This document shows, piece after piece, positions 3,149 through 49,817 of a stretch of 50,573 nucleotides of DNA. The stretch covers positions 1-50,573 of IMG/VR virus record IMGVR_UViG_3300014656_006075. One strand, 5' to 3'. Position 1 is the first letter of the stretch. The number at the start of each line of letters is the position of its first letter. The translations under genes and the position numbers were made by a program. The stretch is from a virus (Duplodnaviria > Caudoviricetes). Under the pieces are notes generated by a model. The model worked only from the letters and a program-made list of their open reading frames with translations. It was not told the origin of the DNA and did no database searches.

Positions 3149-4288
3149 TTACTTATATAGTACACGTAAAAATTTACTCCACATACTTTCTGTATGAAAC
3201 CTTAAGCCTATTGAGCTTGTGCCGCTGTATGGGTCATAATAGTGATAATAATTTGGGAAGCAAATATTCACCCCATTGTAATTATGCATATTTTTGCCAG
3301 CAAAGTTTGAATTCATCATATTTGAAAAGCAATTCTTAGTCAGTTCAACTAATTGTTTTTGAGCAACATTAGTTTCTTGATCACCAAGTGCTATCAAAAA
3401 ACTATATAAATCCGTATATGTATTTCCAAAGATTTTAATCTTCTTAGTGTCGAAATTATTGAGTCTATTAGGATTATTAATGTAGTGCTCAAGTACTTTA
3501 TTAAAAGAATTATTGAATTCTTGTACTCGTTCAAGGTTGACGCTGCATAGTGTGAGCTTATCACCATATTGCTCATTGATGTATTCTTTGTGTAACGAAA
3601 TTATTTCAGTACATAATTCTTGTCCATCCGTGTCAATATTGGATTTAATATATTTATCAAAATATGACAACATACCTCGCCAATGAACAAAGCCACTAAT
3701 ATCCTCACTACCAATAAAGTATTTTGAACAATCTTTTAATTGATAAATGGCTTCCATAGAACCCATATAACAAGGCGCTGTAAACATAACGAGTTCAATT
3801 TTATTGGAAGACAACAAGGCAACCTCAATTTCCCTTAAAGTCAAATTATCACCTTCCTGAGAACTATCCCAACAAGTGCCTTTGTAACCACCCCCATGGT
3901 TATAAAATGCTACAATTATTTTTTCTGCTGGATAATGTTCATTTGAATAATTAATAAACTTTATAAGAGTTGTAGAGTCACCCATATTTGTTTCGCCAAG
4001 ATCTAATAATTTGATAGGATTGCTTCGTTGATCAATAAAATAATAAGCACCTCCAGCTTCTTTTGTATCACTTAACACCAAATAATTAATATCGTCATTT
4101 GATGAAACACGATCTGAAAAATCGTTTAGTGGATCATAAATGTTTTTGTTATCGGCGGCACTGTAAAACAAATAAGTCCATTTTTTGAGCTTGTTTCGTT
4201 CTAGATTATTATTCTCAGTTTGTTTTCGCTGAGTATAACATGCAACGAAGAACAAAACCACAGATAAATATGTAATTATTTTTAACAT
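3149..4288 (-). CDS. Clostripain-family (C11) cysteine peptidase lipoprotein, first cassette
   Basis: Lipobox FVAC, WTYLFYSAADN, NMGD, catalytic NHGGG and APCYMG; flanked by perfectly complementary GTTAGGCAGTT / AACTGCCTAAC. Confidence 0.85.
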   Translation of the reverse strand: MLKIITYLSVVLFFVACYTQRKQTENNNLERNKLKKWTYLFYSAADNKNIYDPLNDFSDRVSSNDDINYLVLSDTKEAGGAYYFIDQRSNPIKLLDLGETNMGDSTTLIKFINYSNEHYPAEKIIVAFYNHGGGYKGTCWDSSQEGDNLTLREIEVALLSSNKIELVMFTAPCYMGSMEAIYQLKDCSKYFIGSEDISGFVHWRGMLSYFDKYIKSNIDTDGQELCTEIISLHKEYINEQYGDKLTLCSVNLERVQEFNNSFNKVLEHYINNPNRLNNFDTKKIKIFGNTYTDLYSFLIALGDQETNVAQKQLVELTKNCFSNMMNSNFAGKNMHNYNGVNICFPNYYHYYDPYSGTSSIGLRFHTESMWSKFLRVLYK

Positions 4289-32426: not shown

Positions 32427-32470
32427 CTACCTGCATTACATTCATTTATTCACATATCTACCTGCATTAC
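32427..32470. repeat. 13-bp direct repeat CTACCTGCATTAC, 31 bp apart
   Basis: Exact copies at 32427-32439 and 32458-32470. Confidence 0.85.
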
Positions 32471-33981
32471 GCCTCTTGCCAGTCATCTTCTACTTGCAAC
32501 TGAATTTCTGACAAATATTTATCCATATCGGGGTTCTTGTTTACTACGCCATGGTAGGGAACATAGAGTCCTTTTACTGCATAGTAGTATCCATCAATAA
32601 GGTCATCATGTTTTCCGCGCGGGAACATCAGGAGTTCATCTTCAAATTCTTGCATCCCTACTTTTAGATACACTTTGCCTTGAGCGAACCTTGGCTGCAA
32701 TGATTCTATACGTTTGGATTTTGCTGTTCTCGGATTATTCTTCAGCTCAAGCCCTGGAATGAATATGCCTTTCTTGATACAGACTTCCTTCAGGTAATCC
32801 CGAAGCATTTCCTGATATCCAGTTGTTTCAATCTGAGTTCTTCTAGGCTTATAGTTATTGTAGTTTACGAGAACCTGTCTACCAACTTCCATTGGTGGAA
32901 CTCGTTTCCTGAAGTAAGGAAGACAATAGACATTCTGAGATCTGTCTACTGCTATTGGAAATATTACAGAGTAATCCGCTGACTGCTGAATTGAGCTTGC
33001 TGGATCTACGCCCATGAATACATTAACAGGAACTATCTTATTGACTGATCCTTCACCTTTCAAGTAGGTTATGTTCAGGTAAGCATCATCACCCCTGTAT
33101 TCAAGAGTTCCATCCCAATGCTTAATGTAGTCTTCTCTGAAGAGCTGATCTTCATCACCAATAATCTGACACATCCGTTCCTTGTAGAATACAGATACCT
33201 TTCCGATTATTTCCAGATCCGCTTTCTCAGCCAGTAGTTCTTCGACTGATTTCATTTCAGCCCATAATGAAACCGTTTCACCATCTTCATTTTCATAGAG
33301 ATAGCTGTAATGTTTCGTTACCCAACGCTTCATCATTTGGAGCTGCATAATGATGGATCTTTCGTTGAGCGGAGTTCCGATAACGATCATACGACCTCTA
33401 TCAGCATCGAGAGCAGGCACAGCAGCTTGTAGGAGCCACTTGAAGTTATTCTCCATACCTTCTTTCGTCTTCGTATTGTTCTCGTCTTCGGGGTCATCCA
33501 GGATAATCAGAGTTGGTCTTTGTCCACCTATGTTCATCCCTCGAAGCATCTGTCCCATACCTTTGCAGATAATTGCAGATCCATCCTTCAGGACAATTTC
33601 AGTAGAAGTCCATTTCTTAGCTGACTGCACTCCCCAGTAGCCAAACAGTTGTCTGAAGTTTTGATTGTAGTCGAGAATGTCTTTAATGGTTTGTAGGATA
33701 TTAATCGCGTGACCTTGCGTTCGGGATACAATGATGATTACTTTTTTATCACGTCCGAACATCAGGTGATGGATTATATTAAGAATTGCTACTAAGGTAG
33801 TTTTTGCAGATCCGCGGGGAGCAATGATATTCAGGAACTTGATAGAAGTATCAAGAATGAGATCTGAAAGTTCATAGTGAAATGCTGGTGAAGGTTTGGT
33901 TACTGCTTGAGCAAAGATAGCTTTACCCAATAGCACCAATGATCCCTTCAATTTCTGAAGTATTTCCAACTTTGTTGACAT
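32467..33981 (-). CDS. terL: Terminase large subunit
   Basis: APRGSAKTT Walker A, IILDDPE Walker B, VIGTP, nuclease GVDPA...DYS, HDDLID. Confidence 0.95.
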   Translation of the reverse strand: MSTKLEILQKLKGSLVLLGKAIFAQAVTKPSPAFHYELSDLILDTSIKFLNIIAPRGSAKTTLVAILNIIHHLMFGRDKKVIIIVSRTQGHAINILQTIKDILDYNQNFRQLFGYWGVQSAKKWTSTEIVLKDGSAIICKGMGQMLRGMNIGGQRPTLIILDDPEDENNTKTKEGMENNFKWLLQAAVPALDADRGRMIVIGTPLNERSIIMQLQMMKRWVTKHYSYLYENEDGETVSLWAEMKSVEELLAEKADLEIIGKVSVFYKERMCQIIGDEDQLFREDYIKHWDGTLEYRGDDAYLNITYLKGEGSVNKIVPVNVFMGVDPASSIQQSADYSVIFPIAVDRSQNVYCLPYFRKRVPPMEVGRQVLVNYNNYKPRRTQIETTGYQEMLRDYLKEVCIKKGIFIPGLELKNNPRTAKSKRIESLQPRFAQGKVYLKVGMQEFEDELLMFPRGKHDDLIDGYYYAVKGLYVPYHGVVNKNPDMDKYLSEIQLQVEDDWQEA

Positions 33982-34034: not shown

Positions 34035-34069
34035 AAAAAGGGCATACCCTAAACTCAGGATATACCCTT
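34035..34069 (-). terminator. Intrinsic terminator upstream of terL
   Basis: AAGGGUAUAUCCU...AGGGUAUGCCCUU hairpin running into a U-tract. Confidence 0.65.
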
Positions 34070-36752: not shown

Positions 36753-37307
36753 CTAGTTTAATTGTTCGCGTCTTACAACTTTTAGTTCTTTTGCAACTTT
36801 TGGGTTAGCCTTAAACTGAACACTTGCATCAATAGCTTTTGATAGTAATCCAAAGGCTTCATCATGAGCAGGGGATTTGTCAACTTCCATTAGAGCTGTG
36901 TATTGTTCAAGGTACGGCTTGGTTAAAAGGTCAGTGTCAATTGCTGCAGAAATAAGACATCCCAAAATATCATTAGAAAAGTCTTCCTCATAAGCTGATT
37001 CTTTCTGCTCCAGGATAACCTCACCCAGTTTCCTTTTAATGCGCGTAAGATCCTTCTCCATCTTGGAAGCAGGGGAGAGTTTCAATGCTCCGATGTCAGC
37101 CTGCATAGCTTTAAGGGTTTCTGTCAGTGAGGCTATCCTGGTATCAACCTGTTTGCTTCTTAAATCCAAAGTTTCAGCAAAGGCGACAGTCATTTTGAGG
37201 CTATTAGCGAAGGAATTCGTGGATACTTTATCAAGCTTGGCTTGAAATTCAGTTCGTAGGTCTTCTTTGACTTTCTCAAGTCTGGTTTTAGTTACTAAGT
37301 TAAACAT
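36753..37307 (-). CDS. Coiled-coil hypothetical protein, first gene of the leftward arm
   Basis: 184 aa; RBS is AATGGAGTGCGAACCTT-ATG. Confidence 0.75.
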   Translation of the reverse strand: MFNLVTKTRLEKVKEDLRTEFQAKLDKVSTNSFANSLKMTVAFAETLDLRSKQVDTRIASLTETLKAMQADIGALKLSPASKMEKDLTRIKRKLGEVILEQKESAYEEDFSNDILGCLISAAIDTDLLTKPYLEQYTALMEVDKSPAHDEAFGLLSKAIDASVQFKANPKVAKELKVVRREQLN

Positions 37308-37510
37308 AAGGTTCGCACTCCATTAGTTTAGGTTAAAACTTTTATATATGGCTTTGAAAAGGAGGCGGGGAACAGGACAGAATGAAGATCCTATCCCCCT
37401 GTTTTGCTTGAGGTAACCAACCAACTAATCAATGTCTATGTCAATCGTACAGTTAATAAAAAACTTTAAGCAATCCATATAAAACTATATAAATAAATCA
37501 CTTGAAAATA

Positions 37511-37539
37511 AATGTAGACAACAGATACAGGTAATGCAA
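37511..37539 (-). promoter_or_regulatory. sigma70-type promoter for the leftward arm
   Basis: TTGCAT-N17-TACATT. Confidence 0.6.
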
Positions 37540-37969
37540 GTGAAAAGGTACGTCTATCCTAAAAAAATTACTTAGCTAACCAGATCCATGTAAACAAGTT
37601 GGGTTACAGGGTCGGAATTCCCGTTGAGATCCTGACAATATAGCCAGTAGCAGACAAGAAGTGACAAAGTGAGGGGAAATAGTAGGGTTACAGGGTGGGT
37701 GTGGCAAGGGTAGTCATCTCAGGGATCACAGTAGGGTGCTCCTACCTGCATAACATCTGAAAAATTATAATATAGTGGGGGTGGGTGATATACAGGTTAT
37801 CCCGACCCTTGCCAGAAAGGGTGTACGGGGTCGCAATCCGTTGAAATTTCCGTTGTAGCCCACAGGTTAGCTGCTTGGATCATGGCAAGGCTCAGTCCCT
37901 AGCAACTGGCGTTGCCTTGCTTCATATCAACGCTCAATTCATTTAATCATTTATACTAAGGAGTATATC

Positions 37970-38311
37970 ATGGCTTTGATTACTAAGTGTACCAACCCAG
38001 CTAAACAGTATCTATCTAAGAAGAACAAGTGGAAGGTTGTACAGGACTCTGAAGAGAACACTGTCTACAATACTAGACGTGTCAGAATGTCCTTCGATGA
38101 TCATGTAGCCATTCATGAGACTGTAATGGGTTCCAAATTGTTAGCTTTAGCAGCTGAACTGGACAATCCAAAGGTCGTTATCAATAAGGATGCAGAGTAT
38201 TCATTAGTCCATAACAAGGATGGTGATAAGTTTCATAGAACATCTGAAGCTGGCTCTAAGTTTACTGTCCTTACATATACACAGCGCACTACTGCACAAG
38301 TTGAGTGGTAA
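37970..38311 (+). CDS. Hypothetical early protein
   Basis: 113 aa, AAGGAG RBS. Confidence 0.75.
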   Translation: MALITKCTNPAKQYLSKKNKWKVVQDSEENTVYNTRRVRMSFDDHVAIHETVMGSKLLALAAELDNPKVVINKDAEYSLVHNKDGDKFHRTSEAGSKFTVLTYTQRTTAQVEW

Positions 38312-38447
38312 CTATAAAGGGGTGTTCCAATACGGAGCATCCCAACTCATATGTTCACTACACCCTCAAGCAGTATCCATGAATTAATCCCAGCAATACC
38401 AGCGTAATGCCAGTAACCCAAATAACGATCATCCAACGGAGAATACA

Positions 38448-38696
38448 ATGTACCCAAACTATTTAATTAGACTTAGTGAGTGGATAACTATCCGCGCACA
38501 AAGAGGACTCAGTGCAGGTATTTTAGCTCAGGCTAGAGACCTATTAACATTAGCAGATGAACCCAGTTTACCAAATGTCATGCTCCAATCAATGAAACAG
38601 GATGTAATGACTCAGCTGATTAACTGGCGGTCAGAGTTCTCAGAAACAAATGAAATTGACTTCCTCATAGGTGAGGTAAGCAGGAGTTTACAGTAA
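38448..38696 (+). CDS. Hypothetical early protein
   Basis: 82 aa, GGAG RBS, hairpin downstream. Confidence 0.7.
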   Translation: MYPNYLIRLSEWITIRAQRGLSAGILAQARDLLTLADEPSLPNVMLQSMKQDVMTQLINWRSEFSETNEIDFLIGEVSRSLQ

Positions 38697-38818
38697 TACT
38701 CCTTGGATAACCCCCTGTAACCCAGCAATGGAGCAGGGGAGTTTATTTAATTAACCAGGACATGCATGACATTTTAACTATGCCATAATAATAATGGACT
38801 CTTGATTGAGTCCCGCTG

Positions 38819-39025
38819 TTAATTCAGGCATATGTCCAATTTTATTAATAACTCACGTACTTCAGCAGTATTCGGAAGCCATAAGGCTCCTTTATTCCAG
38901 TGTCCATGCTTGGATACAAGGTCTAATGTCTGTCTGAAGTCTCTTTTGCCTTTATTATAGTCAGCGGGGTAAGGTCTGAGGATAGTATATTCATTACTAT
39001 TCAAGATTGCTCTTGTAGTGATCAT
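38819..39025 (-). CDS. Counter-oriented 68-aa protein with its own promoter
   Basis: RBS AATGGAGTGCGACC-ATG; promoter at 39065-39093; hairpin GGACTC/GAGTCC after the stop. Confidence 0.75.
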   Translation of the reverse strand: MITTRAILNSNEYTILRPYPADYNKGKRDFRQTLDLVSKHGHWNKGALWLPNTAEVRELLIKLDICLN

Positions 39026-39064
39026 GGTCGCACTCCATTATTGTATCCAGGGAAATAGAACTTA

Positions 39065-39093
39065 AAGTTATTACAGAAAAGCAGTTAAGTCAA
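39065..39093 (-). promoter_or_regulatory. sigma70-type promoter
   Basis: TTGACT-N17-TAACTT. Confidence 0.6.
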
Positions 39094-39154
39094 GTCATTT
39101 AAAGTAGTTTGTCACATAGGCAGACATTTTGACAATAAGTCATAGGAGCATTAC

Positions 39155-39412
39155 ATGGAAAGGTTTGCAGTTGTGTTATTACTGGTAACAAATTATGCAG
39201 ATTATCTGACAGCAGTAACATTTTCAAGAGGGTTAGGTAATTGCTGGTTTCTCAGCTTTGAACGTGATCCGATAAGCGTTGTATTTGATCTCTTTGCTGA
39301 TGGACATATCACACCTTCAGTTAATGGTAATCGGATGTCAGATCTTTCAATTGATGAAGTAGAAGAATATTTAACCAGGACACTTGGTATCCCTGTATCC
39401 AAGACAGGATAA
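39155..39412 (+). CDS. Hypothetical protein
   Basis: 85 aa, AGGAG RBS. Confidence 0.6.
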   Translation: MERFAVVLLLVTNYADYLTAVTFSRGLGNCWFLSFERDPISVVFDLFADGHITPSVNGNRMSDLSIDEVEEYLTRTLGIPVSKTG

Positions 39413-39449
39413 TTTGGAACTAAGACCTTTTTGAATAAGTTGATTAAAA

Positions 39450-39752
39450 ATGATCAAAGGCAGAATAATTCTATTTAGCAGCAACTCTGACGTTGACTCC
39501 TTCCTCACTAATAACTGTTTCGATTGCGGAAGAGTATTCCACGATCCAATACATCTAGCGAACGAAAAGTCAGAATTCAAATGCGCTTTACTCGAACAAT
39601 TATCAACAAAGAACCTTAAAGAGTCTGTTATCTCACGAGAGAACCTTCACTGTTCTGCCCCAATAGCATTAGCCAAAGAGTATGGGTTCAAGCCCTTCAA
39701 GCATTGGAAATGTGTTAAAAGAACTCCTAGGGACAATCTATCAGCCAAGTAA
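39450..39752 (+). CDS. Hypothetical Cys-rich protein
   Basis: NNCFDC...C...C pattern. Confidence 0.6.
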   Translation: MIKGRIILFSSNSDVDSFLTNNCFDCGRVFHDPIHLANEKSEFKCALLEQLSTKNLKESVISRENLHCSAPIALAKEYGFKPFKHWKCVKRTPRDNLSAK

Positions 39753-39827
39753 TCGGATACAGAGGTCTTATGTATTTTGAATTAATTTCATGCGTAGAAA
39801 TGTAAACTTAACATAAATTAATCAACA

Positions 39828-39856
39828 TTGCAACTTAATTAATTAAGACATATTAT
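39828..39856 (+). promoter_or_regulatory. sigma70-type promoter
   Basis: TTGCAA-N17-TATTAT. Confidence 0.6.
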
Positions 39857-39995
39857 ACTTGCTATGTTTTATTTTGATTTGATCACAATTTTAGATGTGC
39901 GAACCTGAATATAGGAACCAACTGATTAACGCACAGGGGGAACCAAGATAAAACTAACGGGAGTGCGAACCCAATAACCATAAGGAGAACTGTAT

Positions 39996-40844
39996 ATGTT
40001 CCAGGAAAATCAATACCCAGACGTAGAAGTAGTAGAAATATTAGCAATTGAAACAGAACCATTATTAGCTTCAACTCAATTCAAACAAGAGGTCATCACC
40101 GATCTCAGCCAGTTTTATAACCCAGTATGTGAACAGCCACTTGAATACGTGTCACCAATTTATAATGACATTGTAATCAGCAACGAGTTCAAAGGTATTT
40201 ATGACGGATTAACTGGTCAGCTCATTCACCCTCACTTAAATAGCTACAAGGTAGTGACTAATCAAGAAGTCATTGAGCCTGTACTGAACGTATTAACAAA
40301 CCTCGGTTTTAATTATCAGTTCGGAAAGAAACAGTCATACTGTCACTTAGGATGGATGAAGCTGCAAGTTATATTCCCTGATATCCTATTCCTTGACAAT
40401 GATTCAAAATCCGCTTTAACTCTTGATATTTATAACAGTTACAACAAATCCTACAAAGCTATTATGCAATTTGGTGGACTCAGAGAAGTCTGTACCAATG
40501 GCATGACCCTATGGAAGATATTAGGCAGATATGTACGTAAGCATACTTCTGGATTCAATATTGATGAATTCAAAAGAGTTCTGAATAAAGGCATGCAAAG
40601 TGTGCCAGTGGTCCAGGAGCGTATTCAATTACTTGAAAGTATCGAAGCAAAAAGTGAGCTGTTATTAGCTATTGAGAATGAATTTCCTAAAGCTGTGAAG
40701 GAATATGTTAATGTTGAACATAAGTCAGGGATGTCCGAGTGGGACGTGTACAACATTTTAACTCATTACATCAGCCATGAAATCAAGAAGCAACATTTGA
40801 TCGCTGATTATTCTAACAGAGCAAGTCAGCTCTTTAATCTCTAA
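39996..40844 (+). CDS. DUF932/DUF945-family protein
   Basis: YKVVTNQEV, YNSYN...GGLREVCTNGM, WDVYNILT. Confidence 0.8.
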   Translation: MFQENQYPDVEVVEILAIETEPLLASTQFKQEVITDLSQFYNPVCEQPLEYVSPIYNDIVISNEFKGIYDGLTGQLIHPHLNSYKVVTNQEVIEPVLNVLTNLGFNYQFGKKQSYCHLGWMKLQVIFPDILFLDNDSKSALTLDIYNSYNKSYKAIMQFGGLREVCTNGMTLWKILGRYVRKHTSGFNIDEFKRVLNKGMQSVPVVQERIQLLESIEAKSELLLAIENEFPKAVKEYVNVEHKSGMSEWDVYNILTHYISHEIKKQHLIADYSNRASQLFNL

Positions 40845-40859
40845 TCCAGGAGTACGAAC

Positions 40860-40991
40860 GTGTTAATATTTACTCTTTCAGTCATTGCAACAGGTCTATT
40901 AACTTGGTTTTACTTCATGCATAGGAGCATGAGGTTTACACAGAAGATGGTTAAGACCATTTATCTAAACAACTTACAGAAAAATGACTGA
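40860..40991 (+). CDS. 43-aa single-TM peptide
   Basis: Hand-translated from GTG: LIFTLSVIATGLLTWFYFMHRSMRFTQK...; RBS GGAGTACGAAC. Confidence 0.55.
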   Translation: MLIFTLSVIATGLLTWFYFMHRSMRFTQKMVKTIYLNNLQKND

Positions 40992-41007
40992 AGTCAATTT
41001 ATTTCTA

Positions 41008-41036
41008 TTGCATTAATAATTTACTTTAAGTAAGTT
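41008..41036 (+). promoter_or_regulatory. sigma70-type promoter
   Basis: TTGCAT-N17-TAAGTT. Confidence 0.55.
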
Positions 41037-41109
41037 ATCTATCCCTATACAGGGAAACAAGTTATACAACGGAGTGCGAATCCGATTTTCTTTTTACAAG
41101 GAGGACTGT

Positions 41110-41895
41110 ATGTCTGAGGCAATTCTATACGTGGGTAAATCTGGACGTGGCAAGACCACATCTGTCAGAACCCTTAACCCTGCTGAAACTTATATCATTA
41201 GCGTGATCCCTAAACCTTTACCTTTCCCTGGCTGGAAGCAATCATATTTCGAGAACTATTTTGACGAAAATGGTAGTGAAATCCAAGGCAATAGGATGAT
41301 AGTGTTTGGGAATGATTTCGATCTTCGCGCATTAAGTGATCCTAAGAACACAGCTAACAGAGACAAATTCCTGAACGTGAGTAACGAAATAGTTAAGAAG
41401 CTCAGGAATATTTCCGCTTATCTACCCCACATTAAAACCATCGTGATTGATGACAGTCAGTACCTTATGGCATATGAAGCAATGGCTAAGGCAACTGAAA
41501 CTGGCTATGGTAAATTCAATCAAATGGCACTTAACTTCTTCAGTATTATCCCCATATCTCAGAATCTCAGGGATGACATTAAAGTATTTTTCCTTCACCA
41601 TGTTGATGACAGTGATGCAACTAACGTTAGAGCTAAGACCCTTGGTAAGATGATCGATTCTACGATCACGCTTGAAGGTGTTTTCTCGACCGTATTGTAT
41701 GCCGACATGAAGACAAAAGGTGGCAAGAACGAGTACTTAATTCATACTCAAGGTACAGAATTCAACACTTGTAAATCTCCGATGGGAATGTTCATTAACT
41801 CTGTCATACCCAATGATTTGCAATATGTTTGCGACTGTGTTGATGCGCATAACAATGGTCAAGCTGTACCTGTTCTGCCTAAGTTAGCTGCATAA
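41110..41895 (+). CDS. AAA_24/Sak4-like ATPase (phage recombination)
   Basis: GKSGRGKT, IVIDDSQY, KTLGKMID, CKSPMGMF; start reset to MSEAIL after AAGGAGG. Confidence 0.85.
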   Translation: MSEAILYVGKSGRGKTTSVRTLNPAETYIISVIPKPLPFPGWKQSYFENYFDENGSEIQGNRMIVFGNDFDLRALSDPKNTANRDKFLNVSNEIVKKLRNISAYLPHIKTIVIDDSQYLMAYEAMAKATETGYGKFNQMALNFFSIIPISQNLRDDIKVFFLHHVDDSDATNVRAKTLGKMIDSTITLEGVFSTVLYADMKTKGGKNEYLIHTQGTEFNTCKSPMGMFINSVIPNDLQYVCDCVDAHNNGQAVPVLPKLAA

Positions 41896-41947
41896 TCAAG
41901 CTGGATTTTCCAGCACAAATAACAATTCAAATTTAACATTAATCCTA

Positions 41948-42631
41948 ATGGGAGAAATACGTATGCCAAAAATGAACTCAAATCACTCGACTGGTGGTCA
42001 AAGTAACTCAATTGTAGAAGGTGTCTATTTATCACCTGCTCGTATCAAAGCGATTGAGCTTAACCAGAACAATTTGGACGGTGAAGGTAAACCATTCAAT
42101 CTTGCATTAATAGTAACCCTGGAAACAGGTTCTGGTGATAAAGTATTCGATAACAAATTATTCATAGCTGGTAACTTCGCTGAATCATTTAATGGGTGGG
42201 GTCCAAGACTTCGCCATTTTGATACACTGTTACAGTCTTCAGGTGTTTACAACTACTTTGATGCTGATACAATTGCTCAGTATGGCAATCAGCTAGAACT
42301 CGGTACATTACCCGCTTCCTTGATTAACACTGCTACTGGTAAAGAGATCCAGGTCGTACAGTATATCAACAGAATGTATGGAGGTAAAGCCCGTTCAACT
42401 GTTTGGGAGCAGACTTTCCCGATTGATGCTGAAAGAGAAGATATTAAAGCTGAATGGGATAAATGGCAGGGATATCTTATTAAAAACGCAAAGAAGAATC
42501 CTTTCCAGCCTGAGTTGATGGGTATGACTGAATCAGATCAAACCTCATTCAATCATGGTGCTAACGTGGGTCAATCTACTGTTAATGTAGCTGCTCATGC
42601 TGGTGTCGAAGAACGTCCGATGATCATTTAA
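41948..42631 (+). CDS. Putative single-stranded DNA-binding protein
   Basis: Follows the Sak4-like ATPase; OB-like beta pattern (EGVY...IKAIE) and flexible tail; start may be 41963. Confidence 0.5.
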   Translation: MGEIRMPKMNSNHSTGGQSNSIVEGVYLSPARIKAIELNQNNLDGEGKPFNLALIVTLETGSGDKVFDNKLFIAGNFAESFNGWGPRLRHFDTLLQSSGVYNYFDADTIAQYGNQLELGTLPASLINTATGKEIQVVQYINRMYGGKARSTVWEQTFPIDAEREDIKAEWDKWQGYLIKNAKKNPFQPELMGMTESDQTSFNHGANVGQSTVNVAAHAGVEERPMII

Positions 42632-42644
42632 TAATACAGGGCAT

Positions 42645-42676
42645 AAAAAAAGGGTCTAACCAAAAAGGATAGACCC
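42645..42676 (-). terminator. Intrinsic terminator of the sRNA
   Basis: 7-bp stem plus U7; no minus-strand CDS upstream to explain it. Confidence 0.8.
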
Positions 42677-42734
42677 AAATGCCTCGAAAGGCTTTCAGTT
42701 AGCAATGGAGTGCGAACCCTTATGAGAACTGAAT
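42645..42734 (-). ncRNA. Predicted ~90-nt antisense small RNA with three hairpins
   Basis: Promoter at 42739-42767; stem UUCAGUU/AACUGAA enclosing CUCAUAAGGGUUCGCACUCCAUUGCU; GCCU-UUCG-AGGC; terminator GGGUCUA...UAGACCC-U7. Confidence 0.8.
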
Positions 42735-42738
42735 GCGA

Positions 42739-42767
42739 AATATAGTAGAGTAACCATACACATGCAA
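42739..42767 (-). promoter_or_regulatory. sigma70-type promoter of the sRNA
   Basis: TTGCAT-N17-TATATT pointing against the early operon. Confidence 0.75.
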
Positions 42768-42828
42768 GTGGAACTAGGTACAAGTACCGATAAAAGATTT
42801 AACGTTATCCATTTAGGAGTATACAATA

Positions 42829-43086
42829 ATGGCACAGAAAACAGCAAGATTTATATTATTAGAATGGCTAAGGTCAAAGAAAGGCAGATTGATTAGGACT
42901 CACAATATCGAAGACGAAGTAAAAAGATACGGAGTCTTAGCTTACAATAAAACACACAATGGCAGTTCTTACTCAAGAGCCTTCCGAGTCATTAAAAATG
43001 ACGTTGCACTCATGCGATCGCATGGTTTTGAAATTCAGCAGTCTAATGACCCCGACTCAATTGAAGGGACATGGCTCGTAACATAG
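42829..43086 (+). CDS. Small putative winged-helix DNA-binding protein
   Basis: 85 aa, basic, SSYSRAFR helix then beta hairpin; precedes primase. Confidence 0.55.
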   Translation: MAQKTARFILLEWLRSKKGRLIRTHNIEDEVKRYGVLAYNKTHNGSSYSRAFRVIKNDVALMRSHGFEIQQSNDPDSIEGTWLVT

Positions 43087-43095
43087 GAGTACTTA

Positions 43096-44946
43096 ATGAA
43101 CAAATTCACTGAATTCACTTTCGGTAAACGACACGAAGGTAAGGCAGTAGACGTGAACGGATTAGGTCAATACCTGAAAACTGCTCAGGCTACTGGCGCA
43201 GAGTTCTTCAGATCCATTTTTTATTTCGATGAACAGATTCTTCAGCACTTAAAGACACGCAAATCTCCATCAGGCTACTTAGGCAATTACCACCTTGATA
43301 ATATAACCTTGGACATAGATAAGGGGAAAGAAACCGATACAACAACGCTGCATCGAGCTAAAATGTTTTATGAACAGTTAAGGGATGATTGGAATATTAA
43401 CGAAGACGAAATCCAATCATGGTTCTCAGGTACAGGGTATCATTTTGTCATACCTGACATATTTGGATTTGAACCCGCTAACGATCTTCCAGATACAGTT
43501 CGTAAGACTCTAGCGCGCGAATTTGAAGGAATAGACACATCGTTTTACAACAACTCAGGATTGATTCGGGTTGGCTACACAATTAATCACAAGACTAAAT
43601 TATACAAAACTCCATTACATGCTGAAGAACTTTTGAGTGCTAAACCTGAAGACATATTCGCGTTAAGCAAACAGCCTAGAACTGACTTTCATTTCACAAA
43701 GTATTTATCCAAGAATGTTACTCACCCAGGTAGAATATTACTATCCAATGGCGATAAGAAACAAATGAAAATGAGTCAACACAACACTACTAATCGAGTG
43801 ACTTGTATGCAATCTTGTTATGCCCTTGGTGAAGAAGAAGGGACCCGTCATCTTAGAATTATGCGTTTAGCTAGTTGGCAGCGTAGAAATGGAACTCCGA
43901 TTGAAGGAACTGTTGCAATGATACAGGCTTATGCTCCATCATTAGATCCCTATGCAGTCGAGAGGGATGTACGTTACACTTACGATAAAGAGTATGAGTT
44001 CGGATGTAATGATAGCATAATGAAAGAGTTTTGTTCCAGCAAATGTTTGTTCTTCAAGGGCAAGAACTTCCTACCTGGTATTGTTACAGCTCAAGAAATG
44101 GAGAAAGAGTACGTTCAATATACTCGTGATCTTCAAGGTGACAACGTAATCGATCTGAAAGATGTCTGGGACTTAGAAGAAAATTTCAGAATTCTTCCAG
44201 GGAACTTAGTTAATGTCATAGGACCATCGGGCAGAAATAAAACTGCACTTGCTCAGAATCTTGCTGTTAAGTTAGCTAAAAAGACTCTGTACATTTCCAC
44301 CGAGTTCGGTAATCAGCAGCTATACAGACGATTCGTTCAAATTGCTAGAGGTATGGACAAAGAATCAGTCCAAGAGCATTATCTGGTTAATACAAACCAT
44401 TACTCTAATGATGTTCGCAATATTGGATACGTAAGGGACACTCCTGATCTCATAGAACTTGAACAGATTGTCAAAGATTCTGATAAACACGTAATTATCA
44501 TTGATACAGTACATGATATTGATATCAGCGATCAACCAGACGGACTCAACAAAGAGAAACGTTTAGCTATGGAGCTGAAGCAGATGGCTGAAAGATATAA
44601 AGTCATTATTATCATGGTTCAACATACCAATAAACAATCCTCAGAACATAGGACGAAAGAAGGTAGCATAGAAGCATCTGAATTATCAATGTACTCAGGA
44701 CTTGGATCGAGTGCATTTACTCAGAAATCTGATATTGTTATCGGCATTACTGGTGAACGAAATATGTCAGCCAGGACAGTAGAATGTCTCAAGGCTAGGG
44801 ATGATCCTAGTTTCAAACTCTTCTTCAACGTTGATATGAAAACATTCATCTTTCACCAGGTATCATTAAAGGATGAACCGATTGATCGAATAGCAGCGCA
44901 TCAACCAGATAGACCTATCCATCAATTAACCTTTGGAGGAAACTAA
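43096..44946 (+). CDS. AEP primase(-polymerase) fused to an SF4/DnaB-like helicase
   Basis: TLDID, FSGTGYH, Cys cluster CND...FCSSKC, GPSGRNKT, ISTE, IIIDT, MVQH, KARD. Confidence 0.85.
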   Translation: MNKFTEFTFGKRHEGKAVDVNGLGQYLKTAQATGAEFFRSIFYFDEQILQHLKTRKSPSGYLGNYHLDNITLDIDKGKETDTTTLHRAKMFYEQLRDDWNINEDEIQSWFSGTGYHFVIPDIFGFEPANDLPDTVRKTLAREFEGIDTSFYNNSGLIRVGYTINHKTKLYKTPLHAEELLSAKPEDIFALSKQPRTDFHFTKYLSKNVTHPGRILLSNGDKKQMKMSQHNTTNRVTCMQSCYALGEEEGTRHLRIMRLASWQRRNGTPIEGTVAMIQAYAPSLDPYAVERDVRYTYDKEYEFGCNDSIMKEFCSSKCLFFKGKNFLPGIVTAQEMEKEYVQYTRDLQGDNVIDLKDVWDLEENFRILPGNLVNVIGPSGRNKTALAQNLAVKLAKKTLYISTEFGNQQLYRRFVQIARGMDKESVQEHYLVNTNHYSNDVRNIGYVRDTPDLIELEQIVKDSDKHVIIIDTVHDIDISDQPDGLNKEKRLAMELKQMAERYKVIIIMVQHTNKQSSEHRTKEGSIEASELSMYSGLGSSAFTQKSDIVIGITGERNMSARTVECLKARDDPSFKLFFNVDMKTFIFHQVSLKDEPIDRIAAHQPDRPIHQLTFGGN

Positions 44947-45144
44947 ATGTCAATAATAACATACGTGCTGAAAACTGACATTATAGCAGTTGCCTTTCAA
45001 GTGAATGATGCAAATGTAATCGTTCAGGCTGGACCATATTTACATTGGACAGTTGGACAGAAAGCAAGCGTCATTGACAATTGGCTAAGAAAGAAACAAT
45101 ACAATTATTCAGTCACTGAAGTTAAGGAGCAAGCCAATGGCTAA
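44947..45144 (+). CDS. Hypothetical protein
   Basis: 65 aa, GGAGG RBS. Confidence 0.65.
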   Translation: MSIITYVLKTDIIAVAFQVNDANVIVQAGPYLHWTVGQKASVIDNWLRKKQYNYSVTEVKEQANG

Positions 45145-45319
45145 GTATAAGCGTATGGAAGCTCCTGAGAACTGTGGTAACTCATGTAAGATGTGCGTTT
45201 TGAATGGTCAGAATCCTCCATGCAACAAAAGTATATACCAGCATTTATTTGAGTGCTGGGATGATACCAAAGCATATTATTTTATTAAGGTTTCAGAAGA
45301 AAGGAAGGTAATTGTATGA
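45137..45319 (+). CDS. Small Cys-rich protein
   Basis: 60 aa, CGNSCKMC. Confidence 0.65.
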   Translation: MAKYKRMEAPENCGNSCKMCVLNGQNPPCNKSIYQHLFECWDDTKAYYFIKVSEERKVIV

Positions 45320-45346
45320 AAGTAATACTTGATAAGGGCAGCTCTA

Positions 45347-45895
45347 ATGCCTAAAGAAATTTATAAACTAATTACCTACGATAGTGAGGAAGAAATACAG
45401 TTTGTGAAATGGTTAGAGCTGGCTCAGGAAGCTGGACTTGTTGAAAGATGCGTCTATCAGCCTGGGTCATATCTGCTGTCTGATAAAGTTCAATACACTG
45501 AAGAAGTGGAGCTGAAGACTAAGACCAAAACTGTGCATAAGACCTTATTCCATCCTCACGAATATACGGCTGATTTCCTGATCTATTTCAATAAGATATT
45601 CTTTCAATTCTTTCCTGGATTATTACGCCCAGCTCATAAAGACACCAAGACTGCTGTTGTGGTTGATGTGAAGGGCTTGTATAACCAGAACGATGCATGG
45701 AGAAGATTCTCTATTGACCAGAAATGGGTTTATCAGATATATGGTGTGTATGTCAACAAAGTTATTCCTGAGCAATTCTTTTCTTTCACATTTGTTCCAG
45801 ATGAAATTGCCTGGATAAAGGGTAGGAAGAAGCCTACCAGGATTAAACGATTTAGTAAATGCAAACTGTTCTCGGAAGTGGAGAACACATTTTAA
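45347..45895 (+). CDS. PD-(D/E)XK endonuclease (DUF1064-like)
   Basis: YDSEEE, YQP, YTADF, VVDVKG; start likely MPKEIY. Confidence 0.75.
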   Translation: MPKEIYKLITYDSEEEIQFVKWLELAQEAGLVERCVYQPGSYLLSDKVQYTEEVELKTKTKTVHKTLFHPHEYTADFLIYFNKIFFQFFPGLLRPAHKDTKTAVVVDVKGLYNQNDAWRRFSIDQKWVYQIYGVYVNKVIPEQFFSFTFVPDEIAWIKGRKKPTRIKRFSKCKLFSEVENTF

Positions 45896-45920
45896 CAGTT
45901 AACCAAGGAGTGCGAGCATT

Positions 45921-46613
45921 ATGGCAAGTTTAATTAAACTGGAAAATGAATTACTGATGATCCAACGTGAATTTATGGAATCATTCGATACAAATACTGG
46001 TGAACAAATAGCAGACACTGAAGCAACAGAAGACAAGATGTCGATTCTTGGGAAACAGGTAGCTGCAAAGAAAGCTGGATATGTAAAGTTCCTGAAAAGT
46101 GGTAAGCTAAAGGATCTGCAAAAACGCGGTGAAGACATGATTGCAAATATCAATCGTGAAATTACTCAGATCAGCTTTCGAGAAACAATGATGAAGAAGA
46201 CATTACATCATTCGATAACTGAAGAAGGTTCATACATGACGATCTTTGATGAAGAAACAGGCAAGCCTGACTTGTATGTAACACCATCATTTGATATTAA
46301 GAGAACTGTGGATATGGAGAAGGTTCCTGGCAACTGTCCAAATCTTCAATACTCTTTACCTAAGCTAACCATTGGAGAATACGAGTCCGTCATGTCTGCT
46401 ATGAATCATTCGTATATGACGATTAACGGATCAATGGAAAGAAGCACGATAATTTCTGCTATGCGCAAATTTACTGAAGATGCAGTTTCCTCAATTGGAG
46501 TAAAAGCACTTCAGGAGATTGATCCAAAACATCCCGCAATTAAAGAACACCTTACACCAACGGTTAAGATCACTAAGACCTTGCCTCAAGAACTGAAGGA
46601 GAAAGCAGCCTAA
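45921..46613 (+). CDS. Gp157/Gam-like coiled-coil protein
   Basis: N-terminus SLIKLENEL...DTNTGE...K..GYVKF resembles siphovirus Gp157; RBS GGAGTGCGAGCATT-ATG. Confidence 0.5.
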   Translation: MASLIKLENELLMIQREFMESFDTNTGEQIADTEATEDKMSILGKQVAAKKAGYVKFLKSGKLKDLQKRGEDMIANINREITQISFRETMMKKTLHHSITEEGSYMTIFDEETGKPDLYVTPSFDIKRTVDMEKVPGNCPNLQYSLPKLTIGEYESVMSAMNHSYMTINGSMERSTIISAMRKFTEDAVSSIGVKALQEIDPKHPAIKEHLTPTVKITKTLPQELKEKAA

Positions 46614-46837
46614 TGTTAAAACCAATCACTTTCGGAGTAAAGAAGAATGATAACAAAGAGAATTCGACCAAGAATAGACATTTCCAAATGGTTTTATTTG
46701 AGCTATTTCTTTTTTCTGCCTCTGCTCATACTACTCTTGCAGGAACTTCTGTCACAATAGGAATCGGTCTTACAGGTAAGGCTGACTGTGGCTTGTACTT
46801 CAATCTGCTAGATAGAAAGGAGCAATTAGATGCTTAA
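46613..46837 (+). CDS. Hypothetical protein
   Basis: 74 aa, translationally coupled. Confidence 0.55.
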   Translation: MLKPITFGVKKNDNKENSTKNRHFQMVLFELFLFSASAHTTLAGTSVTIGIGLTGKADCGLYFNLLDRKEQLDA

Positions 46838-47489
46838 ACATATAATCACGACCAAATGCGATAGGACTTGCTCTTATTGCATTATGAAGAATGTATCCGT
46901 TGACGAAAAGTACAACTTAGAAGAGTTACATGATTTGTATGCTACACTTGCTGTTGATTTTGAACAGATAATGATCACTGGTGGAGAACCTTTAATGCAT
47001 CCAATCTTCTTAGATATCGTTGAAGCAGCTAGACTATTCTTCAAAGAGGTACACTTGACCAGTAGCAGAACAGAAGTGGCTCAAGATCCTGGCATCGCTT
47101 CATTGTTTGATAGCGTCACTATTACATTTCATTCATTTGAACACATTCCTAAAGTCAATCCCTGTGTCCCTATCTATGCCTCAATCATGGAAGGGGATTA
47201 TGAGGAAATTCTACCGATGTTATTCAAGACAATGGGATATGCTGGATTAACGATCAACGAGAATCATTGGGAGCCTAATAGGATTCGATTCTGGGATCTA
47301 CCTAAGCCAAACAATTTCTCAATCAGACTGAATGAGTCAGGAAAGTGCTGCTCAGACATGGAAATGATTTTACCCAACTTGGAAGTAATTGATAGTTTTG
47401 AAAAATTTATGGAGTGCGAAAATGAACCAACCTGTAATACTAAAACACTGGAACTTCGAAGGAATAGTCCCGTTCATCAGGAATTTTGA
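46830..47489 (+). CDS. Radical SAM protein
   Basis: CDRTCSYC, ITGGEPL. Confidence 0.85.
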   Translation: MLKHIITTKCDRTCSYCIMKNVSVDEKYNLEELHDLYATLAVDFEQIMITGGEPLMHPIFLDIVEAARLFFKEVHLTSSRTEVAQDPGIASLFDSVTITFHSFEHIPKVNPCVPIYASIMEGDYEEILPMLFKTMGYAGLTINENHWEPNRIRFWDLPKPNNFSIRLNESGKCCSDMEMILPNLEVIDSFEKFMECENEPTCNTKTLELRRNSPVHQEF

Positions 47490-47745
47490 TTTAGAACAGG
47501 ACTTCTTAAATGCCTATGGTTTAGAAATAGACCATTACAAATGTGAACCTGAAGAACTGTTAGTCATTGAGGAAATGCTAATGGCTATGCAGTCAGATCT
47601 TCCTACCGATACTCATTACGAGTTCAAAGATCCTCAGCCCGATTCCTTCGATCTCTATAAGGTAAGAAGGGAGCGGTCAAATCCCCTGTATAATCTGTTG
47701 TGGATTCCAATGAAAAAGCTCATGCTTTGGGGAGCTACTGCATGA
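47422..47745 (+). CDS. Hypothetical protein
   Basis: Start reset to MNQPVIL after ATGGAGTGCGAA. Confidence 0.65.
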   Translation: MNQPVILKHWNFEGIVPFIRNFDLEQDFLNAYGLEIDHYKCEPEELLVIEEMLMAMQSDLPTDTHYEFKDPQPDSFDLYKVRRERSNPLYNLLWIPMKKLMLWGATA

Positions 47746-48296: not shown

Positions 48297-49817
48297 ATGT
48301 TTAATGCTGAATTCTTTCCTACACCCAAATGGGTGATACGAAAAATGATTGAGCCTTACTTGAAAGGGCTGCATGAAAGAGTGATACTAGATCCTGAAGC
48401 TGGCAAAGGTGACATCCTGGATTATATTGCAGATGCTTCAGGCAGCTATTGTCCACCTAAAATGTATTGTGGTGAAATCAATAGAGATCTTCAGTTTATA
48501 TTATCGGAAAAGAAATACAGGCTGATCACTGAAGACTTCCTGAAATATTCAGGAGACCTGTTCTTTGACCTCATTGTAATGAATCCACCATTTAGCAATG
48601 GAGTGGATCATTTACTAAAGGCATGGGAGATCCTTGATGAAGGTGACATCTGCTGCTTATTAAATGCTGAAACTATCCTGAATCCTCATACTGAGAAAAG
48701 GAAACTGTTAGCTACTATAATTAAAGATAATGCTGGCGAAGTTGAACACCTTGGACAATGCTTTAAGGATGCTGAAAGAACTACTCAAGTAGATGTTGCT
48801 ATGGTACGTCTGAAGAAAGTTAGCGGTTCTAAACGTGTGGACTTCGAATTCAAGAGTACATCTTCTGAACCCAGACTTAACCTTGATGAAAATATCATTA
48901 ATGATGCTGTTGCTACAAGGGATGTAATCGGTAACATGGTATTGCGTTTTGAGCAAGTGAAGGAATTGTTTGTTGAGCATTTGAAAGTCACTGAAGGGAT
49001 TAGGTTTTATTCTAACGGTTTAACAAGTACATACGATAAATTCATGGATGAATTCGGTACAAGTGGGGCTAATAAGCTGAAGTATAATGAATTCTGTGAC
49101 CATTTAAGAACAAGTGTATGGAAGCAAGTCATTACTCAGATGGGTATGGAAAGATACATGACTCATAATGTCCGAAGTAATTTCAACCAATTCATAGTGA
49201 CTCAAGGAGCTATGGACTTCACTAAAGAAAACGTCATGAACTTGATTCGAACATTGCTGCTAAACAAAGAAACCATCCTGGAACAAGCTGTGGTTGAAGT
49301 TTTCAATATGCTGACTAAATATCACGATGAAAATAGATGTCATGTTGAAGGCTGGAAAACTAACGATAAGTGGAAGGTGAATAAGAAGTTGATTCTTCCA
49401 AACTGGGTAAAGTATGGTGCTTACATGTCAAGTCACGATATTAGTCAATACGGTGATAATTTCGGAACCAATTACAGCTATGACAGTGAGTATTCTGACA
49501 TTGACAAGGTAATGTGTTATATCAGTGGAACTAAGTATGAGAAATGTCTAACGATCCGTAACACCTTAGAGCATAAATTTCATGAACTCGGGAAAGTATA
49601 TTCTGGCACGTTTAGTAATACTTGCGAGTCTGAATTCTTCGATATTAAATTCTTCAAGAAGGGAACTGTTCACCTAACCTTCAAAGATGAATTCCTATGG
49701 CAAGAATTCAACATGAGAGCTTGTGATGGTAAACAATGGCTGCCTGAATCAGAAAAGAAAACCTGGCAGGAGTCAAAAGTTCAGGACAAACAAACATTAT
49801 TTAGTGAGGTTGCCTAA
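48297..49817 (+). CDS. N6-adenine DNA methyltransferase with DUF4942-like C-terminus
   Basis: FFPTP, ILDPEAGKG, MNPPF, FDIKFFKKGTVHLTF. Confidence 0.85.
   Translation: MFNAEFFPTPKWVIRKMIEPYLKGLHERVILDPEAGKGDILDYIADASGSYCPPKMYCGEINRDLQFILSEKKYRLITEDFLKYSGDLFFDLIVMNPPFSNGVDHLLKAWEILDEGDICCLLNAETILNPHTEKRKLLATIIKDNAGEVEHLGQCFKDAERTTQVDVAMVRLKKVSGSKRVDFEFKSTSSEPRLNLDENIINDAVATRDVIGNMVLRFEQVKELFVEHLKVTEGIRFYSNGLTSTYDKFMDEFGTSGANKLKYNEFCDHLRTSVWKQVITQMGMERYMTHNVRSNFNQFIVTQGAMDFTKENVMNLIRTLLLNKETILEQAVVEVFNMLTKYHDENRCHVEGWKTNDKWKVNKKLILPNWVKYGAYMSSHDISQYGDNFGTNYSYDSEYSDIDKVMCYISGTKYEKCLTIRNTLEHKFHELGKVYSGTFSNTCESEFFDIKFFKKGTVHLTFKDEFLWQEFNMRACDGKQWLPESEKKTWQESKVQDKQTLFSEVA

Follow-up and report, generated by a model that had tools for sequence, protein, structure and literature searches.

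The locus considered here raises the question of why the gap between two early genes of a prophage should carry, on the strand opposite to both, what appears to be a complete small RNA (sRNA) gene, and of what such an RNA might act upon. The prophage corresponds to IMG/VR virus record IMGVR_UViG_3300014656_006075 (Duplodnaviria; Caudoviricetes), which was analysed over its entire length of 50,573 nt (referred to hereafter as the window), and the locus sits in the 197-nt gap between an SSB-like open reading frame (ORF) and orf85. The organization of the locus supports a candidate stand-alone RNA gene on the minus strand, which has a promoter of host type and a strong intrinsic terminator and contains no ORF. 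The predicted complementarity between the loop of its first hairpin and a motif common to several dispersed phage genes is also supported. With slightly more confidence than doubt, we favour the interpretation that this would be a trans-acting antisense RNA repressing a set of six early transcripts, each marked by a copy of this motif, which we call the tag.

A generic sigma-70 scan did not list the promoter of the putative RNA (score 8/12), and a host-specific promoter signal was therefore derived, with the consensus read from the sequences upstream of 39 host tRNA genes. The housekeeping promoters of the host correspond to TTG(A/C)(A/C)n-N16-18-TAnnTTT(G/C) (e.g. C13:1134363 and C13:964586), a type in which a sigma-70-like -35 is joined to a Bacteroidota-like -10. 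Six of the 39 tRNA upstream regions, each of 100 nt, contained the strict form of this pattern, compared with a genome-wide density of 0.0025 per 100 nt per strand, and it had 194 matches in the whole genome (7.9 Mb, both strands). Four of these matches lie in the window, and the RNA promoter is one of them. The promoter of the tRNA-Tyr operon, TTGCAT-N17-TATATTTC, has the same two hexamers and the same spacing as the RNA promoter. A perfect palindrome, GGTACAAGTACC, is found in a single copy at 42777-42788, just upstream of the -35 of the RNA promoter; it could be an operator, but it was not significant, 34 of 100 shuffles also having one.

The predicted 89-nt RNA folds into three hairpins, with a minimum free energy (MFE) of -29.2 kcal/mol (z -4.75), and an equal fold was obtained in none of 200 shuffles. 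In the MFE fold, the apical tetraloop of the hairpin 1 loop is UCGC, and the UUCG of hairpin 2 is closed by a U-A pair, not by the extra-stable C-G. About six sites combining a hairpin with a T-run were found when both strands of the window were scanned, and the T-run of the RNA terminator (-13.9 kcal/mol) is the longest of them; three others are clean (34039, 13670 and 4486), and all of these are located past the 3' ends of sense-strand genes. The only minus-strand ORFs at the locus are of 50-51 aa, with a TTG start, and begin upstream of the -35, so that no credible ORF was found. A first-pass annotation, made from the DNA letters before the present analysis, had described TTGCAT-17-TATATT on this strand, followed by a 7-bp stem presenting a loop, a UUCG hairpin and a terminator with U7, and had noted that no protein is encoded there; the promoter is present exactly where it had been placed, the three-hairpin fold is borne out, and the absence of a protein is confirmed. 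A promoter of its own, no ORF and an intrinsic terminator are the generic marks of an sRNA gene, and all three were found at the locus. The core of the case for an RNA gene is that a rare promoter and a rare terminator lie about 90 nt apart on the same strand, with all local genes on the opposite one.

The tag, GGAGUGCGA, is the complement of the seed in the loop of hairpin 1. Its 9-mer core, GGAGTGCGA, has 13 copies in the 3.96-Mb genome, counting both strands, and seven of these fall within 10.1 kb (37321 to 47411) in the early region of the prophage, all in the sense of the local genes. This clustering has a binomial P of ~1e-15, or ~3e-13 for 6 of 12 copies when the locus copy is left aside. 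The structural genes (1-34000) contain no copy, and the six host copies all lie away from real gene starts. In four of the six non-locus copies (37307, 39025, 45921 and 47422), the core constitutes the Shine-Dalgarno (SD) sequence, 2-5 nt before the start codon. SD sequences are strongly used by the host, most often at -12..-8, and the spacing of the GGAG in the tag is within the host range; the 3' end of the host 16S rRNA lies outside the assembled contigs. Only the 9-nt core is invariant among the copies and the flanks differ, which suggests the pattern of a seed regulon rather than a recent duplication. The flank substitutions between copies were wobble-compatible in two of four cases (n=4 only).

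The tag set is smaller than had first been thought. The loop complement had been said to recur in front of dispersed genes: the core GGAGTGCGA does recur, but the full 22-mer does not, as a search for it with up to three mismatches, blind to a 1-nt gap, matched only the RNA locus itself. The claim of many ribosome-binding sites (RBSs) was overstated, since there are six exact sites and one weak site with one mismatch, and the description of the loop complement as an SD sequence plus AUG holds for four of the six, the other two being located 27-30 nt upstream of the start. Silencing of a whole set of lytic genes also went too far, because the sites are all in the early non-structural region and none precedes a structural gene. 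Beyond these sites, we observed a partial tag, GATGTGCGAACC, at 39894-39905, and a 14-nt identity to the RNA locus, TTAGCAATGGAGTG, at 48596-48609 on the plus strand, inside a DUF4942 methyltransferase-like gene, which may be due to chance or be a target within a coding region.

Pairing between the loop and 59 start regions was evaluated with a windowed score including the opening energies of both partners. This score replaced full-length RNAduplex, in which the duplexes over-extended and the totals lacked meaning. The simple loop duplex energies placed the tagged start regions at the top (-32.3 to -21.1 kcal/mol, versus a median of -11.0 kcal/mol). After correction for accessibility, six of the 59 start regions had values of -10.4 to -20.0 kcal/mol, the next best being -6.6 and the median -0.9 kcal/mol. 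Sixty shuffles of the loop yielded a mean of 0.53 start regions at -10 kcal/mol or better, with a maximum of five, and none of them reached six. The expected interaction of the loop with the 5' regions of phage genes is thus supported at the level of predicted energies. In the complementarity to the first gene of the leftward operon (target A in Table 1), AAUGGAGUGCGAACC plus UUAUG make up 15 + 5 nt with a 1-nt gap (simple duplex of -32.3 kcal/mol), and the match at the start of the 230-aa gene consists of GGAGUGCGA plus UUAUG. Several targets form a mirror mini-hairpin, GG(A)GU-GCGA-A(C/U)CC, and it is plausible that a loop-loop interaction between the UCGC tetraloop of the RNA and this mini-hairpin would provide the first contact.

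Two of the tagged ORFs have further features. A host-type promoter-like site (39093-39063) lies by the 68-aa minus-strand ORF. The 107-aa ORF overlaps the 3' end of a radical-SAM-like ORF (46830-47489) by 68 nt, which may be real, or due to a frameshift within a single gene or to a wrongly called end.

Table 1. Positions of the predicted RNA gene, its candidate targets, the neighbouring genes and the mycobacteriophage hairpin discussed in the text (window numbering unless otherwise indicated; energies are accessibility-corrected pairing scores).
Feature	Positions	Strand	Remarks
-35 hexamer TTGCAT	42767-42762	-	17-nt spacer to the -10
-10 element TATATT	42744-42739	-	Extended form TATATTTC to 42737; fits host consensus TAnnTTT(G/C)
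Predicted non-coding RNA, ~89 nt	42733-42645	-	5' end inferred from the position of the -10; 3' end is U7
Hairpin 1	42733-42694	-	7-bp stem UUCAGUU/AACUGAA (42733-42727 with 42700-42694); 26-nt loop CUCAUAAGGGUUCGCACUCCAUUGCU
Seed UCGCACUCC in hairpin 1 loop	42707-42715	-	Complement of tag GGAGUGCGA
Hairpin 2, GCCU-UUCG-AGGC	42681-42692	-	
Predicted intrinsic terminator	42676-42645	-	25-nt hairpin 42676-42652, GGGUCUAUCC-UUUUU-GGUUAGACCC, then U7 42651-42645
Candidate target A: RBS and AUG of the 184-aa first gene of the leftward operon (36753-37307)	37304-37323, core 37313-37321	-	-16.5 kcal/mol, covering -16..+4
Candidate target: SD of 68-aa ORF (38819-39025)	39028-39036	-	2 nt before ATG; -14.6 kcal/mol
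Candidate target: leader of DUF932 gene (39996-40844)	39960-39968	+	27 nt before ATG; -20.0 kcal/mol, best of 59
Doubtful target: weak 1-mismatch copy GGAGTACGA before 43-aa membrane-like ORF (40860-40991)	40849-40857	+	2 nt before GTG; -5.8 kcal/mol
Candidate target: leader of Sak4-like gene (41110-41895)	41071-41079	+	30 nt before ATG; -16.9 kcal/mol
Candidate target: SD of 230-aa gene (45921-46613)	45907-45915	+	5 nt before ATG; -13.5 kcal/mol
Candidate target: 107-aa ORF (47422-47745)	47411-47419	+	2 nt before ATG; -10.4 kcal/mol; gene call less certain
P22-like portal	30128-32335	-	
TerL	32467-33981	-	
SSB-like ORF, 227 aa	41948-42631	+	
orf85	42829-43086	+	
Primase/helicase	43096-44946	+	Follows orf85
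Adephagia anti-SAS hairpin (SAS, start-associated sequence)	L189:30650-30703		Record positions about 58,649-58,702

The weak copy of the tag bears on a further explanation, according to which the RNA would be the antitoxin of a type I toxin-antitoxin system, directed against the 43-aa ORF (40860-40991), or a prophage sRNA directed against a host mRNA. The 43-aa ORF is hydrophobic and has the 1-mismatch tag as its RBS, and prophage sRNAs acting on host genes are among those described in a review of phage sRNAs (PMC12197685). However, the pairing predicted for the 43-aa ORF ranked only ninth of 59, far from the -10 to -20 kcal/mol of the six exact sites, and the position of all six host copies of the 9-mer away from real gene starts argues against a host target. 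We therefore consider both versions of this explanation very improbable.

The tag has a parallel in the start-associated sequences (SAS) of Cluster K mycobacteriophages. SAS are described as a 13-nt asymmetric motif with an SD core, present in 11-19 copies of one orientation, restricted to the non-structural half, lying 3-7 nt ahead of start codons and seldom found in the host; their conservation exceeds what pairing with 16S rRNA explains, and their reader was left open as 'either RNA or protein' (PMC3203893). Passages of papers from 2024 and 2025 still call their role unknown (PMC11373665, PMC12699233), and no paper combining 'start associated sequence' with 'antisense' was found in the literature searched. 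The tag resembles SAS in being short and asymmetric, with an SD core, a single orientation and a distribution limited to the non-structural region, in being conserved to a greater extent than 16S pairing accounts for, and in occurring far above chance (7 exact copies in 10.1 kb versus 6 in the remaining 3.9 Mb). As to placement, four of the six non-locus tags are 2-5 nt before the start and the other two are 27-30 nt upstream. It differs from SAS in that GGAGTGCGA and the SAS consensus GGGATAGGAGCCC have only the GGAG core in common, the host belongs to another phylum and there are 7 exact copies rather than 11-19. Furthermore, no ESAS-like inverted repeats were seen here, and the window has instead a putative dedicated antisense RNA gene with a promoter and a terminator. 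We consider the tag to be an analogue of the Cluster K SAS, not a homologue.

The right 31.6 kb of the Cluster K phage Adephagia (JF704105), searched with up to two mismatches, contained SAS in 16 forward copies and one reverse copy, with 0.6 expected. Between gp92 and gp93 there is a non-coding gap of 432 nt, and here the reverse copy forms the 10-nt loop, CCUCCUAUCC, of a hairpin of about 20 bp on the gene-sense strand (a stretch of 141 nt gave z -4.14). This anti-SAS hairpin is preceded by two smaller hairpins and by a conserved box, TAGACT, that resembles a -10. The hairpin stretch matched 146 Cluster K records, of which 12 were sampled (Adephagia and 11 others). An identical anti-SAS loop was found on diverged stems in six of the 12 (Adephagia, Bella96, Curiosium, Validus, Peanam and LilPharaoh); the loop of Ekdilam was UCCUCCUUCCCC, and the fetched stretches of Shandong1, SirPhilip, Yuna, Keshu and Pixie had no anti-SAS loop. 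In an alignment of the hairpin from seven of the 12 phages, leaving out the last five, 89.2% of 139 cells were paired, versus 37-49% with the partner slid, and two pairs were changed on both sides (compensatory) and seven on one side. Adephagia is an independent instance of a start tag accompanied by a hairpin loop containing the complement of the tag; this phage and Mycobacterium smegmatis mc2 155 are available as a laboratory pair.

Homologues of the RNA or of the gap were not found in the phage database (distant mode), in 60 related genomes or in 183 fetched loci (nhmmer and blastn-short), a 20-mer of the loop was not found in viral contigs (IMG/VR) or metagenome contigs (JGI), and the genome itself contained no paralogue of the RNA. 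Neither viral contigs nor 400 genomes of the class yielded relatives of the SSB-like protein, and viral contigs yielded none of the orf85, 184-aa and 230-aa proteins; the relatives of Sak4 had identities of 44% at most, and the nearest primase was 46% identical. The tag was absent from 176 of 178 loci, and the two that did have copies had been cut from the same contig as the window. Among 400 further genomes of the order, none had more than three occurrences of the 11-mer of the tag, which was never clustered and had a frequency similar to that of the reversed control. A search of relatives for analogous tags among enriched 9-mers yielded ordinary SD variants only, such as GGAGTA, and a 10-copy word in one relative (L007) was discarded as an unrelated tandem repeat. 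The nearest relative (L054) retains the order SSB-like gene, orf85 homologue (43% identity, E 1e-19) and primase, with a SSB-orf85 gap of 57 nt that has a plus-strand hairpin only; the gap is 63 nt in another relative (L004) and 197 nt here. Since synteny is kept while the gap is so much shorter in the relatives, the RNA module appears to be a lineage-specific insertion. Hfq was not found in the host genome, which is 86.6% complete.

Several observations weigh against repression in trans by a minus-strand RNA, and some of them also belong to the case for rival explanations. The four strict promoter matches in the window are not above the Markov expectation (1.85, sd 1.5). Within its loop, the fold of the RNA includes a weak inner helix in which part of the seed, ACUC, is base-paired. 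Two of the six tag copies are not RBSs, as they lie 27-30 nt upstream of the starts of genes that each have their own AAGGAG, and the sole substitution in the core (G to A at 40849) would not be wobble-compatible. No homologues of the RNA, the motif cluster or the target genes were found in the phage database, IMG/VR, the JGI metagenomes, the GTDB genomes and the fetched loci.

The fold also has to be weighed with respect to the strand. The plus strand of the same stretch folds equally well, or slightly better (-32.5 kcal/mol, z -5.07), so the fold does not support one strand over the other, and the direction is given by the promoter and the U-tract alone. The hairpins might instead be a processing, stability or pause element of the plus-strand mRNA, with no minus-strand RNA being made and with a coincidental likeness to a promoter and a terminator on that strand, an explanation that we consider quite improbable. 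It would fit the plus-strand hairpin in the equivalent gap of L054 and the absence of the promoter from the generic sigma-70 scan. A single metatranscriptome run had 5% of the sampled words of 37001-47000, and its two contigs, 39420-39606 and 43194-43637, do not reach the RNA locus, which would also be compatible with this explanation and gives no evidence either way. However, on the plus strand A7 precedes the strong hairpin and AAAUGCC comes after it, so that it is a terminator only on the minus strand. Moreover, a strict promoter with only 194 matches in the genome would be unlikely to occur by chance about 90 nt upstream of one of the six or so hairpin-plus-T-run sites, on the same strand as this site and in a region where all else is on the plus strand.

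A second rival concerns the tag itself. GGAGUGCGA may be a cis-acting start tag read by a protein or by the ribosome, as has been suggested for the SAS of Cluster K, and the copy at the RNA locus may be one more of these or what is left of the start of a gene since lost. The RNA, if made, would then be a cis-only antisense or a convergent device at the SSB/orf85-primase junction, acting by transcriptional interference or duplex cleavage, and would be complementary to the other tags only incidentally. The locus copy has the same orientation relative to the local genes as the six others and is followed by an ATG and a 7-codon ORF, so it could indeed be another cis tag or a relic start. Flanking CAGTT/AACTG stems are common to the locus and to the real start region at 45921, and the RNA is perfectly complementary to the plus-strand transcript of the gap. 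In addition, the anti-SAS loop is replaced in six of the 12 Cluster K phages sampled, including Pixie, which was reported to bear SAS by Pope et al. (PMC3203893). The fetched stretch of Pixie has no anti-SAS loop, and an antisense partner is therefore no general requirement of such tags. Nevertheless, an RNA with 13-20 nt of perfect complementarity to six transcripts would pair with them regardless of its role, a 7-bp stem closes the loop in which the complement of the tag is exposed, and the early region yielded no recognisable candidate for an RNA-binding protein. We therefore regard a purely cis-acting tag as unlikely, although it deserves more consideration than the other rivals, and we leave very little probability for explanations outside those discussed here.

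The candidate RNA does not belong to any curated RNA family. At gathering scores, Rfam 15 gave no match in the whole window, and at E values up to 10 over 42550-42900 it gave suhB and one microRNA model, with no phage RNA family and no c4-like match. The sub-threshold matches to three sRNA families, all on the minus strand, were to suhB/mmgR (RF00519), ncr1241 and sbrA, with scores of 26.3, 26.2 and 16.5 bits versus gathering scores of 41, 60 and 45, respectively. What the candidate RNA has in common with these families is a minus-strand arrangement in which a small hairpin precedes a terminator hairpin with its U-tract. However, the alignments comprise hairpin 2 and the terminator only and do not cover the putative functional loop, and in the suhB/mmgR alignment the central single-stranded region of the model is deleted.

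The immunity RNAs c4 (P1/P7) and CI (P4) arise by processing from the same operon that they control, in the case of c4 from its leader, and their action is limited to that one operon. The candidate RNA resembles them as a small phage RNA with a loop complementary to repeated sites in phage mRNAs, which would act in trans to keep functions off. Unlike them, it has its own predicted promoter and terminator and is oriented against the flanking operon, in the replication module. Furthermore, unlike those of c4, the matched sites are spread across 10 kb, on both strands and in at least five separate transcription contexts. A c4-type immunity RNA was therefore ruled out on the basis of its own promoter and terminator, the location of the sites off a single operon and the lack of an Rfam match. 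To our knowledge, the antisense RNAs involved in phage development each act on one gene or one operon. In T4, the RegA repressor and the RegB endoribonuclease are single factors recognising the start regions of many early mRNAs (GGAG in the case of RegB), resulting in their joint shut-off; these are proteins, whereas the factor proposed here is an RNA that would pair with a 9-nt tag. The P22 sar and lambda OOP antisense RNAs are described as acting only on the overlapping gene, in cis, and as short terminator-ended RNAs with a host-type promoter, convergent with phage genes and acting by RBS block or cleavage (PMC12197685). The candidate RNA shares these structural traits, but the plus-strand sequence overlapping it holds no real gene and its best matches are elsewhere in the genome. 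Among the sRNAs listed in the consulted sections of this 2025 review, none is directed against a start motif present in repeated copies (PMC12197685).

In its uncultured host, the prophage of the window is located on contig C3, one of the 16 contigs of a genome of 3.96 Mb. The named relatives of the primase come from metagenome-assembled genomes of Ignavibacteriaceae and Ignavibacteriales, and the host probably belongs to the same lineage. A tRNA-Ser gene adjoins the right end of the prophage, and its left end is the contig end, next to an ORF with an integrase N-terminal SAM-like domain. In this ORF (1-492, minus strand), which is cut by the contig end, the domain in question, of phage-integrase type, is joined to the beginning of a TIR domain, an unusual pairing. 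The structural genes occupy the minus strand from about 34000 downward, and the tail region includes a 2925-aa ORF (4854-13631, minus strand), with a clostripain-family (Peptidase_C11) gene downstream of it (3149-4288, minus strand). The leftward operon comprises eight genes, from 37307 to 34095, and is closed by the terminator at 34039; the early and replication genes are on the plus strand from 37970.

Between these two divergent gene sets there is a 660-nt non-coding control region (37310-37970) that is richer in G+C and contains several inverted repeats, as well as the repeat GGGTTACAGGGT at 37597 and 37681. It does not fold better than usual on either strand (z -0.56 and -0.31), and its only Rfam match was a sub-threshold one to CRISPR-DR36 (26.3 bits). 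A host-type promoter-like site for the leftward operon is located at 37539-37509. On the plus strand, after an 82-aa gene, a hairpin CCCCUG...CAGGGG with a T-rich tail (38720-38760) resembles an early terminator; its loop contains AGCAAUGGAG, which matches the RNA locus over 10 nt, a length close to that expected by chance. Face-to-face overlapping promoter-like sites are present at 39803-39856, with TTGCAA-17-TATTAT on the plus strand (39828-39856) and TTGCAA-N17-TAAGTTTA on the minus strand (39833-39803). The plus-strand site precedes the DUF932 leader, and no terminator was found behind the minus-strand site.

Returning to the trans-acting RNA that we favour, the first-pass proposal of such a repressor is upheld as regards the anatomy of an RNA gene and a loop complementary to dispersed gene tags, with a smaller target set than was claimed. 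From this anatomy, the enrichment and orientation of the motif and the predicted pairing energies, we infer transcription, pairing in vivo, the sign of the regulation and a role, as follows. The host RNA polymerase would transcribe the RNA of about 89 nt from the housekeeping-type promoter, against the early genes, and the intrinsic terminator would end it. The seed UCGCACUCC in the hairpin 1 loop and its flanks would then pair in trans with the tag GGAGUGCGA on the six early transcripts. At the four SD tags (first gene of the leftward operon, 68-aa ORF, 230-aa gene and 107-aa ORF), pairing would block the 30S subunit, and at the DUF932 and Sak4 leaders it may act through a ribosome standby region or through cleavage of the duplex. 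The early plus-strand transcript running through the gap, as a perfect complement, could titrate the RNA once early transcription is high. Our guess as to its role would be the damping of leaky early expression in the lysogen, or the shut-off of early genes; the first-pass annotation had suggested, equally as a guess, that it may maintain lysogeny or time development.

As a system, the locus and its tags represent a novel form of two known types at once, one being the phage antisense regulators and the other the start-associated sequences. It may also be an example of a more general arrangement, which we put forward only tentatively, in which phages mark an early regulon with a start tag and a single antisense RNA with an anti-tag loop controls all its members; this prophage would be a clean case, given the RNA's own predicted promoter and terminator, and the anti-SAS hairpin of the Adephagia-type (K1) mycobacteriophages a second, independent one. 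The consensus TTGnnn-N17-TAnnTTT(G/C) is useful for the annotation of this poorly studied host lineage. If this general arrangement exists, it would provide a testable mechanism for start-associated sequences, and an RNA that reads a 9-nt tag on six early transcripts would be an RNA counterpart of T4 RegA and RegB. It would also represent a simple and portable way for a phage to build a post-transcriptional regulon.

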